This document shows, one piece after another, positions 6,471 to 42,128 of a stretch of DNA of 50,565 bases. Each line of letters begins with the position of its first letter. Position 1 is the stretch's first letter. Position numbers and translations under genes: made by a program. A model generated the notes under the pieces. The model was not told the origin of the DNA. It did not search any database and saw nothing but the letters and a program-made list of their open reading frames with translations. Source of the stretch: Rickettsiales bacterium (GTDB taxonomy: Bacteria; Pseudomonadota; Alphaproteobacteria; Rs-D84); contig JAIRRC010000016.1 of NCBI GenBank assembly GCA_031256175.1, positions 1 through 50,565 of the forward strand. Reading direction: 5' to 3'.

Positions 6471-6560
6471 GGACGGGTGGCAGAGCGGTTGATTGTACCG
6501 CACTCGAAATGCGGCATACTCGCAAGGGTATCGTGGGTTCAAATCCCACCCCGTCCGCCA
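6471..6560 (+). tRNA. tRNA-Ser(CGA)
   Basis: Acceptor GGACGGG/CCCGTCC, discriminator G, encoded CCA; anticodon arm CCGCA-CTCGAAA-TGCGG; long variable arm; GTTCAAATC T-loop. Confidence 0.97.
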
Positions 6561-6676
6561 GAATGTTTCCGTGCGTCATCCTTCGTTCCCTCGCGAGGCG
6601 CACCAACAATTCGCCACTAACAACGCGGCTCATTGGGTGCTTGTTCGCTCGTGCTCAAATCCCACCCCGTCCGCCA
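6561..6676 (+). mobile_element. tRNA-linked 94-bp structured element plus exact 22-bp duplicate of the tRNA-Ser 3' end
   Basis: 6655..6676 is identical to 6539..6560; internal sequence is homologous to 41186..41278 and 41380..41474. Mobility is inferred, not shown. Confidence 0.75.
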
Positions 6677-6737
6677 TCCGCCTTCGCTTACGCTCCGGCG
6701 CGATTGGCGAAACAAATCGGGGCGGCGGTTTTTAGGC
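6671..6737 (+). repeat. 67-bp direct repeat, copy 1 (terminator-like multi-hairpin)
   Basis: Matches 8003..8069 with 3 mismatches; starts with the tRNA end CCGCCA and finishes in a GC stem plus T-run. Confidence 0.9.
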
Positions 6738-6777
6738 AAACCTATATCTAGCCCCAAAGTTGATAGTCAACAGGGCG

Positions 6778-7281
6778 TCAGTTGGAAGGTTCTTTCAGGA
6801 TACCCTCCCTTAGCAAGGCGTCTTCAAGAAATTCATATTGTTTAAGGATAATCTTTTTATTAGGTTCGGCCAACATTTCTTTTGCATCTTTTTCAAGATT
6901 TTCCTCTATCCTTTGCAGGAACGCGTCATTGTTTCCCCTTTGCTTTGCCCTTCGTTTATATTCTTCTTTGCTATATATATTTGGAACGGCCAAAATGCAA
7001 TCCACACCTCTTTCCCTAAGCAAGTCATAAATAATTTTGCCCGGAGCTACCAAAACAACTTCGTATTTTTTCATGGCTTCGATAACCGCGTCGACATAAT
7101 TGTTCGGCCAATACGGATTTATTTCTCTTTGAGTGGATTTCAAGGATTCTGGTGGCATACTTTTCTGTTCATCAGTTAACAGATACTTATAATTCCCGCT
7201 TGCGATTTCTGTAACATTTTTATAATTTTCTATGATAAATGTTTTGCCCGCGCAAATCCACGCACTAATCACAAAACTCAT
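6778..7281 (-). CDS. Hypothetical P-loop nucleotide-kinase-like protein
   Basis: SAWICAGKT Walker-A-like N-terminus; ATG 7281 with AAGGA upstream, 1 nt after the fic stop; AT-rich; similar layout to 34447..34941. Confidence 0.7.
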   Translation of the reverse strand: MSFVISAWICAGKTFIIENYKNVTEIASGNYKYLLTDEQKSMPPESLKSTQREINPYWPNNYVDAVIEAMKKYEVVLVAPGKIIYDLLRERGVDCILAVPNIYSKEEYKRRAKQRGNNDAFLQRIEENLEKDAKEMLAEPNKKIILKQYEFLEDALLREGILKEPSN

Positions 7282-7282
7282 T

Positions 7283-7888
7283 TTATAGTTCCTTAGTTTT
7301 GAATTCGTCATATCCTTCGTAATAATAGCTGACGTCTATGCCTTTCATGAACAGCTCGCGCTCGTTTGTCCTGCCAGTCAAAGCGCCTTTTAGCAGGTGC
7401 TTTATCTCGGCGCTATTCACGGGACTGCGCTCCATCGCGGAAAGATAGGCCGCCTTGTCTATTTTGTTCCAGTTGACGACCTTCTTCAACTCTTTCTTCA
7501 ATATCAAGTCCAGCCATATACGCGTCGCGCGGCCGTTGCCTTCGCGGAAGGGGTGGGCGATATTCATCTCGACATACTTGTCGACAATCTCGTCGAAGGT
7601 CTTTTGCGGCATTTTGTCGATGTGCTTCAAAGATTGCGGCAGGTGCATGAGTGGAGCGAAACGGAAGCTGCTTTTGGCGATGTTCACGTCGCGTATTTTC
7701 CCGGCAAAGTCGTAAATCCCGCCGAATAGGAACTTGTGTATTTGGCACAAGCCGATGAAGGTGCCGACCTTCACCTTGTCGATTTTTCCGCTATCGAAGA
7801 AAATCCTTGCCTGCTGCTTGCTGATTTTCTCTTCTGTCTTGTTAAGTTCGACCTGATTCGCGATGTTTAATTTGTTTTTCAATACCAT
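7283..7888 (-). CDS. fic: Fic-domain AMPylase, class III (NmFic-like)
   Basis: Catalytic [12 protein letters not shown] and C-terminal inhibitory SYYYEG, which fits (S/T)xxxE(G/N). Confidence 0.93.
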
Positions 7889-8002
7889 TTTTTGCGCCCT
7901 CTGAATATACTACATTATAGCCCGGGAAAAACGAGAAATCCATCTTATTATTCGGTAGATTTGGGCATTCTTATATGCCGCCATATACTCAGGAATCCTG
8001 CA

Positions 8003-8069
8003 CCGCCATCCGCCTTCGCTTACGCTCCGGCGCGATTGGCGAAGCAAATCGGGGCGGTGGTTTTCAGGC
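8003..8069 (+). repeat. 67-bp direct repeat, copy 2
   Basis: 64 of 67 positions identical to 6671..6737. Confidence 0.9.
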
Positions 8070-8186
8070 GAATATATAATAATGCCCGAAAGTCGATAGC
8101 CTGATGATAGATGGCTAAATTACACGTTGACAAACGTTTTGTATGGCATAATATGATAAAAAATCCAGAATTATAAGGAATTAGCC

Positions 8187-8636
8187 ATGAATGATTACTT
8201 AAAGAGCAGATACCTTGGAATAACACCCGAAGGCGAAAAAGAAGCGTTTGAAAAAAACATAACCGAATTAAACGGCGACCTTGGAACAAGCCATCAACGA
8301 TATCGCAGAAACATATCTTACGGATGTTCGAAATTCAGAGATATGTTCTTTCAAGCGAATTCTTTATCCGGCAAGTCGGAAAGTTGTTTATTTTTTGCTA
8401 TGATTAAGGAATTGGTGCTCCATAACGACAGAGAATCCGTAGCCATTAACAAAGCCGGAGGAGTATGGCAAGGAATGGTTGAGATTTTTGTATCTCCAAA
8501 TTGCCTGGAAAATAGTTATAATGAAACTCTTGAAAAACTGATGGATGACATATCTAAAAACACGCAAGACGCCGCCGATAATGTTTGCAAATTATGTAAA
8601 ATGATAACCGATTTACGCACGGCAGCCCAGAGATAA
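8187..8636 (+). CDS. Hypothetical protein (AT-rich)
   Basis: 149-aa ORF, AAGGA upstream; no motif recognised. Confidence 0.65.
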   Translation: MNDYLKSRYLGITPEGEKEAFEKNITELNGDLGTSHQRYRRNISYGCSKFRDMFFQANSLSGKSESCLFFAMIKELVLHNDRESVAINKAGGVWQGMVEIFVSPNCLENSYNETLEKLMDDISKNTQDAADNVCKLCKMITDLRTAAQR

Positions 8637-8648
8637 AAGAGCATCGAC

Positions 8649-8930
8649 ATGAAAAAGAAATATCGAAAAACAGCTTTTTTCGCGTTATTGCCCATTGCAG
8701 TTTTGTCGATACCGATTCTTTCCGTAGCATTGGTCGGTTTCCTGTTTTATGCTTTCTTCGCGTTTTTCCCAGAAACCGCGGAACATATATTCAGCTTGTT
8801 CTCCGACCCTTATTGCAACGACGCGCAATGCGGACTTGAAACATTTTTCAACGTATTGATTTTTACGGCTCTGCTATCCATGGTTCCGTTGTTCTTCGCT
8901 GTCCGCCGGATTGCGAACAAATCGAAGTGA
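8649..8930 (+). CDS. Small hypothetical membrane protein (2 TM)
   Basis: Basic N-terminus; two hydrophobic stretches around a CxxxxC loop. Confidence 0.6.
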   Translation: MKKKYRKTAFFALLPIAVLSIPILSVALVGFLFYAFFAFFPETAEHIFSLFSDPYCNDAQCGLETFFNVLIFTALLSMVPLFFAVRRIANKSK

Positions 8931-32531: not shown

Positions 32532-34438
<1,907 letters not shown>

Positions 34439-36392: not shown

Positions 36393-37037
36393 ATGAAAAA
36401 ACTGCTTCTAATATCAACGGCGCTGACCGCGGTTTCTAGCGGCGCTTTCGCTTTTGAAACCAATATCGGCGACATTTCGCCGTATGTTTCCGGCCGAATC
36501 GGCCTCCAAATTCTAACCGCCGATGGCGCTGACCAGTCGGCTACCGGAAGCGTCAAGGCCGGCGCAATCGGCGCGCGCTGGAAGGGCGAAGAATTAAACC
36601 TTCGCGGCGAATTCGAATTCTCGAACGGGACATACGTCAACTATGGCGAGGACGCGGACATAGTCAACGGAAGCAATGTCGTTATCGGGCACGTCAGCTT
36701 TCCCGAAGAGTATAAGATGAACACTTATATGCTGAACGCCTATGCCGACTTCTTCACGAACTATAAGATAAAGCCGTATGTCGGCGCCGGTATCGGCGCG
36801 GCTTCGACCGACGTCAAATTATGGGTGGAAGAAAGAATCGGAAGCCTTGACATGGTAAAAATCCCGGTCGCGGAATTTTCCAAAAACTCGTTCATCTACG
36901 GCATATACGGCGGAATCGGATTCGACGTGATAACCGGCCTGGCGGTGGATTTGGGCGTGCGCTACAACGCCTTCACGATAGAAAAAGTCGATTTGTCGAT
37001 GGTGTCCGTCAATGCCGGCGCCCGGCTGACGTTCTAA
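36393..37037 (+). CDS. Outer-membrane beta-barrel protein (opacity/OmpA-transmembrane-like)
   Basis: Signal peptide; LRGEFEFS, YMLNAYADF..IKPYVGAGIG, VDLGVRY; C-terminal Phe. Confidence 0.85.
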   Translation: MKKLLLISTALTAVSSGAFAFETNIGDISPYVSGRIGLQILTADGADQSATGSVKAGAIGARWKGEELNLRGEFEFSNGTYVNYGEDADIVNGSNVVIGHVSFPEEYKMNTYMLNAYADFFTNYKIKPYVGAGIGAASTDVKLWVEERIGSLDMVKIPVAEFSKNSFIYGIYGGIGFDVITGLAVDLGVRYNAFTIEKVDLSMVSVNAGARLTF

Positions 37038-40401: not shown

Positions 40402-41052
40402 ATGAAAAAGCTTTTAATGATTTTATCGGCGTTGGTTTTTATTTCCAATCCCGTTTTGGCGGACGAAGAGGCCGACGACGAATTCGACTTGAAATTGGAC
40501 AAGTATATATCGGTGAAATTGGGCGCGACCAAATGGCTTGATTCGTATGGCAATCCGCGTTCCGACGCTTGGGCCGTCGCGTTAGGCGTAGGCAAGGAAC
40601 TGGACGATTTCGCCATCCGGGCCGAGCTGGAGCTTTCAATGCAAGGCTTCGCGAAAGATTCGGAATGGAATATCGACGCCGGAAACCGGGGCTATTATAA
40701 TTTGGAAAACACCACCGGCGTTTTTCTTTTGAACGGATATATTGATTTGATGCCCGGGTATAGGGCGCGGCCTTATTTCAGCCTTGGTCTGGGATTTGTG
40801 GCGGCCGACAATTTCGTGGATTCGGAATCGAGATGGACTTACGGGGGCGGCGGCTGGGGCTATGAATCCGAATGGGGCGGCGAAACGACGTTTTCATTCG
40901 CGTCAAGCTTGGGCGCCGGTGTCAGCGTCAATTTGATTCACGGCTTCGCGCTGGACGCTGGCGCAAGATTCATATTCACAAGCAAAGACACAGAAAACGA
41001 AAACAGCAAAACGATGTTCAATGCGTCCTTGGGGTTAAGGTATACTTTCTAA
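40402..41052 (+). CDS. Outer-membrane beta-barrel protein (paralogue of 36393..37037)
   Basis: Signal peptide; IRAELELS, FLLNGYIDL..RARPYFSLGLG, ALDAGARF, GLRYTF. Confidence 0.85.
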   Translation: MKKLLMILSALVFISNPVLADEEADDEFDLKLDKYISVKLGATKWLDSYGNPRSDAWAVALGVGKELDDFAIRAELELSMQGFAKDSEWNIDAGNRGYYNLENTTGVFLLNGYIDLMPGYRARPYFSLGLGFVAADNFVDSESRWTYGGGGWGYESEWGGETTFSFASSLGAGVSVNLIHGFALDAGARFIFTSKDTENENSKTMFNASLGLRYTF

Positions 41053-41059
41053 AAACTAC

Positions 41060-41088
41060 TTGCAATTTCGTGGGGCGGCCGTTAGAAT
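41060..41088 (+). promoter_or_regulatory. Promoter of the tRNA-Leu/tRNA-Cys unit
   Basis: TTGCAA-N17-TAGAAT followed by a GC-containing discriminator region. Confidence 0.7.
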
Positions 41089-41100
41089 TGGGCGTGTTTT

Positions 41101-41185
41101 GCGGATATGGCGAAATTGGTAGACGCGCAGCACTAAGGATGCTGTGTCGAAAGACTTGGGAGTTCGAGTCTCCCTATCCGCACCA
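41101..41185 (+). tRNA. tRNA-Leu(AAG)
   Basis: Acceptor GCGGATA/TATCCGC, discriminator A, CCA; anticodon arm CAGCA-CTAAGGA-TGCTG; variable arm GTC-GAAA-GAC; T-arm GGGAG-TTCGAGT-CTCCC. Confidence 0.93.
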
Positions 41186-41300
41186 GAAGGCCTGTGCGTG
41201 CCTTCCCTCGTTCCCTCGCGACGCGCACATCTTTTCGCCGCTAACAACGCGGCTCAAAGTGTGCTTATTCGCTCGTGCTCGAGTCTCCCTATCCGCACCA
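41186..41300 (+). mobile_element. tRNA-linked 93-bp element plus exact 22-bp duplicate of the tRNA-Leu 3' end
   Basis: 41279..41300 is identical to 41164..41185; homologous to 6561..6654. Confidence 0.75.
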
Positions 41301-41305
41301 TGTTT

Positions 41306-41379
41306 GGCTCGGTGGCAGAGTGGTTATGCAGAGGACTGCAAATCCTTGTATGCCGGTTCGATTCCGACCCGGGCCTCCA
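41306..41379 (+). tRNA. tRNA-Cys(GCA)
   Basis: Acceptor GGCTCGG/CCGGGCC, discriminator T, CCA; anticodon loop CTGCAAA; one C-A mismatch in the T-stem. Confidence 0.95.
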
Positions 41380-41496
41380 AAATTTTGAAGTGCGCCATCC
41401 ATCGTTCTCTCGCGACACGCACATCAAAAAATCCCCTAATAACGGGGATTTTCTGTGCGCTTATACGCTCGTGCTCGATTCCGACCCGGGCCTCCA
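41380..41496 (+). mobile_element. tRNA-linked 95-bp element plus exact 22-bp duplicate of the tRNA-Cys 3' end
   Basis: 41475..41496 is identical to 41358..41379; shares all conserved blocks with the other two copies. Confidence 0.75.
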
Positions 41497-41500
41497 AAAT

Positions 41501-41525
41501 AAAAGACCCCTTAAAGGGGTCTTTT
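41501..41525 (+). terminator. Intrinsic terminator of the tRNA unit
   Basis: AAAAGACCCC-TTAAA-GGGGTCTTTT. Confidence 0.85.
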
Positions 41526-41558
41526 ATTTTGGAGGCCTATTGCGCGGGCTTTATTACC

Positions 41559-41584
41559 TGGATTCCGGCTTTCGCTGGAATGAC
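41559..41584. repeat. REP-like palindrome, copy 2
   Basis: TGGATTCCGGC-TTTC-GCTGGAATGAC. Confidence 0.7.
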
Positions 41585-41603
41585 TAAATAGGGCCGGGAG
41601 TTT

Positions 41604-42128
41604 TTATACAATTTGGTCAAGCGCGCCGGTTGCGGGGTCGATGACGAAGCCGTAGACCGTGATGTCTTTCGGCATCAATGGATGGTTTCTTATAATGCCC
41701 GTCGTGTCGCGGACCGAATCTTCCACGCTGGCAAATCCTTTCAGCCATCTGTCCACGTCTATGCCGGATTTTTCCACCGCGTCCAATGCGGCCGCCGGGA
41801 TGATTTTCCGCGCGTCGAAATCCTGCATTCCGCAATCCTTGTGGCCTATGACCAGAATTTCCTCCACGCCCAGCGCCCAGACCGCGACAAGCAGGCTTCG
41901 CATTCCGCTGCCGTAAGGGTGCGTTATCATCGCGCCCGCGTTCTTTATGATTTTCGCGTCGCCGTTCCGCAGGCCCAACGCGGCCGGCAAAAGTTCTGTA
42001 AGCCTTGCGTCCATGCACGAAACTATCGCGATTTTTTTATCAGGAAATTTCGTCGCGCTGTATTTTTCATATTCCTTGTCCGCGACGAATTTTTTATTGT
42101 ATTCAAGAATCTGGGCGATTTGGGACAT
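41604..42128 (-). CDS. Beta-class carbonic anhydrase (clade D-like)
   Basis: CMDARL, IKNAG, GHKDCGM zinc ligands. Confidence 0.93.
   Translation of the reverse strand: MSQIAQILEYNKKFVADKEYEKYSATKFPDKKIAIVSCMDARLTELLPAALGLRNGDAKIIKNAGAMITHPYGSGMRSLLVAVWALGVEEILVIGHKDCGMQDFDARKIIPAAALDAVEKSGIDVDRWLKGFASVEDSVRDTTGIIRNHPLMPKDITVYGFVIDPATGALDQIV

Follow-up and report, generated by a model that had tools for sequence, protein, structure and literature searches.

Among bacteria, tRNA-Leu(AAG) has been studied solely in the Lactobacillales (Streptococcus, Lactobacillaceae and Oenococcus/Leuconostoc), where the wobble adenosine of this CUN-box isoacceptor, set in the loop CUAAGGA, is converted to inosine (I34, giving the anticodon IAG) and where I34 has been linked to a genome-wide recoding of leucine (PMC13249217, PMC11472039). 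The gene has also been noted in other Firmicutes, in Mycoplasma and in Prochlorococcus (PMC13249217, PMC8007984, PMC11472039, PMC8072771). Here we analyze a tRNA-Leu(AAG) gene at positions 41101–41185, on the forward strand, of contig JAIRRC010000016.1, one whole contig of 50,565 nucleotides (nt) from a metagenome-assembled genome (MAG) of a Rickettsiales bacterium, which we will call the window. In a broad clade of uncultured Alphaproteobacteria, decoding of the CUY box most likely falls to this gene. Leu(AAG) seems not to have been described previously in Alphaproteobacteria; our literature search found no report of it there or in Verrucomicrobiota. The occurrence of Leu(AAG) in Alphaproteobacteria thus appears to be new, but the unexpected and more interesting part is the clade's avoidance of the DNA word CTC/GAG, which holds in all codon phases, on either strand and in intergenic DNA and which probably preceded the change of anticodon.

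The window tRNA resembles its counterparts in the Lactobacillales in being an A34 CUN-box leucine isoacceptor with the loop CUAAGGA, in its fixation throughout a lineage and in the unusual leucine codon usage that accompanies it. The resemblance is not complete, however. The window tRNA is alphaproteobacterial and has an independent backbone. In Lactobacillales, CUU and CUC both rise at the expense of UUA, whereas in the window clade CUU is raised and CUC is strongly depleted (the joint rise is a correlate of the gene in Lactobacillales, not a definition of the tRNA class). Further, the skew in the window clade is tied to avoidance of CTC/GAG at the DNA level, which is seen in no other sampled Leu(AAG) lineage. 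And I34 and the loss of Leu(GAG) have been demonstrated in Lactobacillales, whereas in the window clade both are candidate features. A second comparison is with tRNAs whose A34 remains unmodified, namely Mycoplasma tRNA-Thr(AGU), Mollicute tRNA-Arg(ACG) in genomes without the deaminase TadA, and the A34-containing tRNA-Thr and tRNA-Ser of Oenococcus oeni (PMC3711424, PMC8072771). With these, the window tRNA shares an A34 gene outside the Arg box and a codon usage leaning to the U-ending codon, as an A:U pair predicts, although the DNA-level background accounts for much of that lean in the window. But the unmodified tRNAs were shown biochemically or occur in TadA-less genomes, and for the window tRNA an unmodified A34 is one of two candidate states.

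ARAGORN and Rfam (RF00005, 55.5 bits against a gathering score of 29) both recognize the gene as a class II tRNA. Its long variable arm, GTCGAAAGAC, together with A73 and an encoded CCA end, matches leucine identity. Direct reading gives a 7-nt anticodon loop, C32-U33-A34-A35-G36-G37-A38 (41133–41139, forward strand), on a perfect 5-bp stem, CAGCA/TGCTG (41128–41132 and 41140–41144), with the anticodon AAG at 41135–41137, the wobble A34 at 41135, and U33 and G37 present. The A34 tRNA-Leu that the earlier note had read by eye from the loop C-T-AAG-G-A is therefore confirmed by two programs and by inspection. A promoter-like sequence, TTGCAA-17 nt-TAGAAT (41060–41088, forward strand), ends 12 nt 5' of the gene; it is the sole sigma-70-like match within 40900–41650 and, on that consensus match alone, a candidate promoter of tRNA-Leu.

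Could A34 be an artefact? The window is a single MAG contig and a mobile-looking repeat adjoins tRNA-Leu, and these features might suggest that position 41135 was misread or misassembled, that the gene is a pseudogene, or that the tRNA is borne by a phage or island. The relatives argue otherwise. The closest of them, L004, whose proteins are 57–84% identical to those of the window (63–84% for orthologues, with the RND pump at 84%), carries the same Leu(AAG)–Cys(GCA) pair, and the two Leu genes differ in the variable arm alone, where GTC-GAAA-GAC in the window corresponds to GGGG-CAA-CCC in L004. These changes are compensatory, which excludes a sequencing error or a decaying pseudogene. The same A34 recurs in independent assemblies from different samples and species, the cloverleaf is perfect and high-scoring, and the neighborhood is core chromosomal. 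A34 is thus genuine, and we consider the chance that it is an artefact negligible; the gene is intact and conserved in its lineage across deep divergence, and it is predicted to be functional.

The breadth of that lineage can be judged from both tRNA and protein comparisons. Thirteen alphaproteobacterial species have Leu(AAG) genes 79–88% identical to the window tRNA, and at least 11 of them have the CAGCA/TGCTG anticodon arm in common; among these 11 are MAGs from rumen and gut as well as Ca. Enterousia and a "Rickettsiales bacterium." The nearest public relatives of the HemW protein encoded in the window are 57–65% identical and come from MAGs labeled "Alphaproteobacteria bacterium" or "Rickettsiales bacterium," labels that support the alphaproteobacterial placement already suspected from the sequence. 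The genetic code of the lineage is standard. In codon-aware alignments of four orthologous genes, CTT, CTC, CTG and TTG are aligned with leucine in 70%, 78%, 83% and 66% of cases, respectively, and CTT and CTC interchange with other leucine codons (CTG, TTG and TTA). A change of code at CTT/CTC is ruled out by these alignments.

Leu(AAG) is less exceptional, and much commoner in bacteria, than either the earlier note or published surveys imply. We scanned one genome per species (185,579 species) with the pattern ATTGGTAGACGC-N6-CTAAGG. The scan returned at least 120 matching stretches from at least seven phyla, each a genuine tRNA-Leu(AAG) according to ARAGORN. They comprise at least 62 genes from Verrucomicrobiota (Akkermansia, Luteolibacter, Rubritalea and Opitutales), at least 22 from Prochlorococcus/Synechococcaceae, at least about 13 from Alphaproteobacteria, at least about 8 from Myxococcota/"Deltaproteobacteria," at least 6 from Synergistota, at least 3 from Planctomycetota and at least 2 from Actinobacteria; these group counts are approximate, the taxa having been assigned by hand from record titles. 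Because the search pattern excludes Firmicute-type D-arms, all of these cases are additional to the published ones. The statement that Leu(AAG) is known mainly from Firmicutes is thus not borne out, and the companion statement that a bacterium typically has a single A34 tRNA is a poor rule for uncultured diversity. Judged from the matches listed, Akkermansia and Akkermansiaceae carry Leu(AAG) as a rule, and the gene is also common among other Verrucomicrobiota, Synergistaceae and Myxococcota (Nannocystis pusilla being one example). We found no paper on Leu(AAG) in Akkermansia/Verrucomicrobiota, Synergistaceae or Myxococcota.

In the window, CTT is the commonest leucine codon. The groEL gene (32732–34438) contains exactly 15 CTT and 4 CTC codons, the numbers that the earlier note had estimated; across 41 open reading frames (ORFs) the totals are 455 CTT and 107 CTC, and in a curated set of 36 ORFs they are 413 and 69. 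Every other four-codon box prefers C over T in the 41 ORFs: GCC 537/GCT 129, GGC 596/GGT 108, CGC 468/CGT 86, ACC 248/ACT 57, TCC 259/TCT 56, CCC 161/CCT 48 and GTC 468/GTT 219. Against these boxes, the CTT/CTC ratio gives an odds ratio of 16.6 (Fisher p = 3e-172). The contrast with C-ending boxes in GC-rich DNA, as it was originally put, needs two qualifications: TAT > TAC and CAT > CAC are also exceptions to the preference for C, and the DNA is just moderately GC-rich, with 53% G+C and a G+C content at third codon positions (GC3) of about 0.65.

The skew is shared by the relatives of the window and not by other carriers of the gene. Calculated for each locus as (CTT/CTC)/(NNT/NNC in other four-codon boxes), the odds ratio is 16.5 in the window, 15 in L001, 17 in L004 and 16 in L005. 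In the alphaproteobacterial tRNA loci with the shared anticodon arm it is mostly 8–71, with several loci having 0–3 CTC codons in 8 kb, and in Micavibrio it is about 4. CTC is nearly absent from several relatives (1/50, 2/61, 1/51 and 0/19). By contrast, the odds ratio is 1.1 in Verrucomicrobiota, 0.9 in Myxococcota, 0.6 in Planctomycetota, 0.6 in Actinobacteria, 1.25 in Synergistota and 1.5 in Prochlorococcus. Since these six other phyla have Leu(AAG) and no skew, Leu(AAG) alone does not produce a preference for CTT. CTC is freely used in Akkermansia, other Verrucomicrobiota, Synergistaceae and Myxococcota that carry Leu(AAG).

A separate peculiarity of codon usage concerns isoleucine. ATA makes up 36% of isoleucine codons in the window (365/1006), and ATA/TAT is the most over-represented trinucleotide, with an observed/expected ratio (O/E) of 1.3–1.56 in the window, L001, L004, L005 and L129–L132. 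Such heavy use of ATA implies a well-expressed decoder, either a lysidine-containing tRNA-Ile2 or a tRNA-Ile(UAU).

The deficit of CTC extends beyond codons. Under a strand-symmetric first-order Markov model of the 32 trinucleotide pairs, CTC/GAG has an O/E of 0.46 over the window (1–50565), the lowest of all pairs. It is likewise lowest or second lowest in the relatives, whose loci span 8–21 kb each (O/E 0.50 in L005, 0.67 in L001 and 0.65 in L004). In four more distant HemW loci, L129–L132, the O/E is 0.22–0.44, and in the pooled alphaproteobacterial tRNA loci it is 0.45. L129–L132 were considered as an outgroup but fall in the same CTC-poor clade, and replicons of cultured Alphaproteobacteria served as controls instead. 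These controls (Paracoccus, Azospirillum and Agrobacterium) show a mild deficit, with O/E values of 0.66–0.81 and codon odds ratios of 1.3–2.5, which suggests that the avoidance, exaggerated in this clade, has a milder counterpart in cultured Alphaproteobacteria. In the other phyla with Leu(AAG) there is none: the median O/E is 0.98–1.02 in Verrucomicrobiota, Myxococcota, Synergistota and Prochlorococcus, and the values are 0.93–0.99 in two Planctomycetota and two Actinobacteria loci. In intergenic DNA pooled over the clade, CTC/GAG has an O/E of 0.76, again the lowest of 32, versus 1.10 in Verrucomicrobiota and 1.14 in Prochlorococcus. We found no paper describing a CTC/GAG deficit.

Several possible causes of this deficit can be set aside. 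First, avoidance of Shine–Dalgarno sequences is not responsible, as CTC on the sense strand is equally depleted (sense-strand O/E 0.45 for CTC and 0.51 for GAG, with every flanking context affected) and GGAG is no more depleted than TGAG. Second, avoidance of GANTC, the CcrM site, or of another longer motif does not fit, as CTC/GAG is depleted to the same extent whatever the 5' or 3' context. Third, a single mutational signature, CTC to CTT, is not sufficient. CTC is depleted relative to each of its single-base neighbors, including CTG, TTC, GTC, ATC and CGC, and what is avoided is thus the word itself and not the product of one mutation type. The palindromic tetranucleotides GATC (O/E 0.27) and GTAC (0.29) are strongly under-represented in the pooled window, L001, L004 and L005 sequences, the usual footprint of restriction-modification.

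To separate the DNA-level from the codon-level component, we compared (CTT/CTC)/(DTT/DTC) in each codon phase and, for the complement, (AAG/GAG)/(AAH/GAH), using GC3-filtered ORFs for the window and database gene calls for six relatives. The in-frame Markov O/E was rejected as a measure of codon selection, being confounded by the preference for CTG in GC-rich genomes. In the window the ratio is 16.5 in frame, 9.0 and 2.9 in the two off-frame phases, and 2.7, 5.1 and 5.1 on the complement (all p <= 1e-12). Pooled relatives give 4.6 in frame, 2.4 and 1.8 off frame, and 2.1, 2.0 and 2.3 on the complement (p <= 1e-7). Of the relatives taken singly, L001 has 13.7 in frame, 2.5 and 1.6 off frame, and 1.3, 1.2 and 2.8 on the complement, and L004 has 10.8, 2.5 and 1.5, and 1.5, 1.8 and 2.3, respectively. 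Verrucomicrobiota lie close to 1 throughout (0.8; 0.9 and 0.8; 1.0, 1.0 and 0.9). The DNA-level component of the CTT > CTC skew is roughly 2- to 5-fold. It is found off frame, on the complement and in intergenic DNA, and no tRNA can therefore be its cause. In frame, CTC is depleted by a further factor of roughly 2 to 7, as selection against CUC during translation could explain.

These results bear directly on the reading that the earlier note had proposed, in which Leu(GAG) was replaced by an A34 or I34 tRNA, together with a broadened TadA, and the new tRNA caused the preference for CTT. In its favor, in-frame CTC lies 2- to 7-fold below the off-frame background in both the window and its relatives, and in Lactobacillales Leu(AAG) accompanies genome-wide leucine recoding (PMC13249217). 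But no tRNA can lower the frequency of CTC in phases 2 and 3 or that of GAG in any phase, nor can it affect either word in intergenic DNA; the same tRNA loop occurs in six other phyla without the skew; CUU and CUC rise together in Lactobacillales, whereas here CUC falls; and the results have no bearing on TadA. We think it improbable that the tRNA came first. Of the claim that the tRNA reshaped leucine codon usage, what stands is the extra in-frame depletion of CTC; much of the skew is independent of phase and symmetric between strands, and other phyla with the tRNA are unskewed.

Instead, we favor as the probable course of events a DNA-level avoidance of CTC/GAG that came first and a G34-to-A34 switch that then matched the tRNA to CTT. 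Pressure against CTC/GAG at the DNA level would have made CTT the dominant CUY codon. G34 reads CUU through a slow G:U wobble and A34 through a Watson–Crick-type pair, and a change of G34 to A34 on a Leu(GAG)-type backbone would thus have been favored, together with changes of U32 to C and U38 to A. Once A34 was in place, CUC would have been less well read and so selected against further.

The tRNA genes available for comparison are consistent with such a switch. The most similar G34 tRNA that we found in a cultured alphaproteobacterium is Azospirillum Leu(GAG) (locus L137). It is about 79% identical to the window tRNA and shares with it the backbone of acceptor, D-arm and anticodon stem (CAGCG/CGCTG versus CAGCA/TGCTG), but its loop is UUGAGGU, with U32, G34 and U38, where the window has CUAAGGA, with C32, A34 and A38. 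A search of 241 million metagenome records for a non-A34 tRNA with the CAGCA/TGCTG arm yielded just three unrelated Leu(TAG) genes, in tRNA clusters.

It is also conceivable that Leu(AAG) is a supplementary isoacceptor that works beside a Leu(GAG) encoded elsewhere in the genome, in which case nothing was replaced. The data cover just 50 kb of the genome, and 8–21 kb for each relative, and to that extent leave room for it. However, the metagenome search gave no G34 tRNA with this arm, no Lactobacillales family has both genes together (PMC13249217), and strong in-frame avoidance of CTC would be unexpected beside a G34 tRNA that prefers CUC. We therefore regard a second, G34-bearing gene as unlikely.

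Some considerations weigh against the account in which DNA-level avoidance came first. Its order of events (DNA bias, then anticodon switch) is deduced and not dated, and it offers no cause for the avoidance of CTC/GAG. The replacement of Leu(GAG) is judged from partial genomes, with short loci for the relatives, and L005 and L129–L132 may or may not carry Leu(AAG). The control loci from other phyla may themselves retain Leu(GAG). The avoidance is not absolute, as tRNA-Leu(AAG) itself contains GAG twice and CTC once. Finally, a small in-frame excess (1.3- to 4-fold, in small samples) is seen in G34-bearing cultured Alphaproteobacteria too, which makes the share of the codon-level effect due to A34 uncertain.

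It is less clear whether position 34 carries inosine or an unmodified adenosine, and we put the two at near even odds. Each of the 121 Leu(AAG) genes collected has the loop CUAAGGA, which sits on at least eight different stems (A38 was left free by the search pattern) and fits the TadA-type loop Y32-U33-A34-M35-G36-R37-A38. YUAMGRA is the loop consensus of Streptococcus pyogenes TadA, which makes tRNA-Leu(IAG), and the loop of tRNA-Arg(ACG), CUACGAA, has C32 and A38 as does CUAAGGA (PMC11472039). Inosine is favored by the fact that the streptococcal enzyme accepts this loop, whereas the extra in-frame avoidance of CUC points to I:C decoding that is inefficient or does not take place. The rate at which G34 reads CUC in vitro is about 10 times its rate for CUU, and with I34 the two rates become equal (PMC13249217). 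Because C32 and A38 are those of the TadA substrate tRNA-Arg(ACG), it is at least as probable that the tRNA adapted to the enzyme as the other way round, and the data do not imply a broadened TadA. Neither the window nor 1.24 Mb of fetched loci yielded a TadA gene.

A34 might, then, remain unmodified, with a clade TadA that is Arg-specific as in Escherichia coli, so that the tRNA would read essentially CUU alone and CUC would be drifting to a near-unassigned state. Tested in vitro, the E. coli enzyme leaves tRNA-Leu(AAG) unedited (PMC11472039), unmodified A34 mostly reads U-ending codons (PMC11066159), and tRNA-Thr and tRNA-Ser of O. oeni offer a precedent (PMC8072771). CTC is almost gone from several relatives, as given above. 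CGC is not avoided in the window, which suggests that I34 on tRNA-Arg is working and that any I34 there behaves differently. Against these points, every bacterial Leu(AAG) tested (O. oeni, S. pyogenes and Streptococcus mutans) has I34 (PMC13249217, PMC11472039), the TadA-type loop is universal in the genes collected, the 69–107 CTC codons still present in the window, 4 of them in groEL, need a decoder, and much of the CTC deficit lies at the DNA level anyway. On balance, an unmodified A34 falls slightly short of an even chance.

A bolder combination would be that a DNA-level system or bias against CTC/GAG forced the switch from GAG to AAG and pushed CUC toward loss, and that the tRNA works with an unmodified A34. 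We consider this doubtful as a whole. If true, it would be a natural case of genome-word avoidance rewiring decoding, with a codon on its way to being unassigned. The avoidance might stem from a nuclease or a modification enzyme that recognizes a very short motif, or from a peculiarity of repair.

In general, the widespread occurrence of a gene studied in one bacterial order provides a natural contrast: most phyla with Leu(AAG) use CTC normally, whereas one alphaproteobacterial clade has nearly lost CTC and shows a deficit throughout its DNA. The contrast separates oligonucleotide avoidance from tRNA-driven selection, which are usually confounded, and makes the co-evolution of codon pool and anticodon testable. 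It also carries a caution, in that a codon skew without off-frame controls is poor evidence of adaptation to a tRNA.

The tRNA-Leu gene lies in a stretch that also encodes purF, creD, purL, purH, cysS, groEL, hemW, a beta-carbonic anhydrase and an RND efflux operon. ARAGORN calls three tRNA genes in the window: tRNA-Ser(CGA) at 6471–6560, tRNA-Leu(AAG), and its conserved neighbor tRNA-Cys(GCA) at 41306–41379 on the forward strand (56.5 bits in Rfam). Each is followed, after its CCA, by an element of about 93 nt and then by an exact 22-nt copy of the tRNA's own positions 55–76. For tRNA-Leu, the element occupies 41186–41278 and the duplicate, TCGAGTCTCCCTATCCGCACCA, 41279–41300 (both on the forward strand), identical to 41164–41185. 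Related elements lie at 41384–41474 after tRNA-Cys and 6561–6654 after tRNA-Ser, where the duplicated segments are 41358–41383 = 41475–41500 and 6539–6560 = 6655–6676, respectively. Element and duplicate together thus span 41186–41300, 41384–41500 and 6561–6676. Two boxes of the element, TCGTTCYCTCGCGASRCGCAC and GTGYGCTTRTWCGCTCGTGC, are conserved, and so is the loop, TAAYAAC, of a central hairpin whose stem covaries. It belongs to no Rfam family and is absent from L004 and all other fetched loci; its single match in a viral contig was discarded as a chance match within a methyltransferase-like ORF. It seems to be a small element confined to this lineage, one that inserts at the 3' halves of tRNA genes and leaves a duplicate of the target.

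In L001 (13979–20996; also in L002), whose HemW is 65% identical to that of the window, tRNA-Cys is kept and the tRNA-Leu site holds just a remnant ending in CCGCACCA. An AT-rich island follows the remnant, with BpuSI-like and Eco57I-like restriction-modification genes, a C5 DNA methyltransferase and a KAP NTPase. The island was probably integrated at the 3' end of tRNA-Leu, and an intact Leu gene of L001 may lie beyond the stretch covered. In the window, a low-GC patch at 6700–8900 (0.42–0.44 versus 0.53), just 3' of tRNA-Ser, contains a Fic/DOC-family gene (7283–7888, reverse strand) and two low-GC3 ORFs that match no Pfam family. The patch was probably acquired as a small islet, and no further copy of the tRNA-Ser 3' end bounding it was found.

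Between the tRNA pair and the convergent carbonic-anhydrase gene, a long perfect hairpin at 41484–41548, CCTCCAAAATAAAAGACCCCTTAAAGGGGTCTTTTATTTTGGAGG, is flanked by A-runs and T-runs and is likely a bidirectional terminator; weak Rfam microRNA matches at this hairpin are spurious. Finally, two paralogous ORFs, 36393–37037 and 40402–41052, are weakly similar to the Rickettsia adhesin Adr family (NF052636, below cut-off) and flank a MotA/ExbB-like gene and a gene for an OmpA-like peptidoglycan-binding protein.

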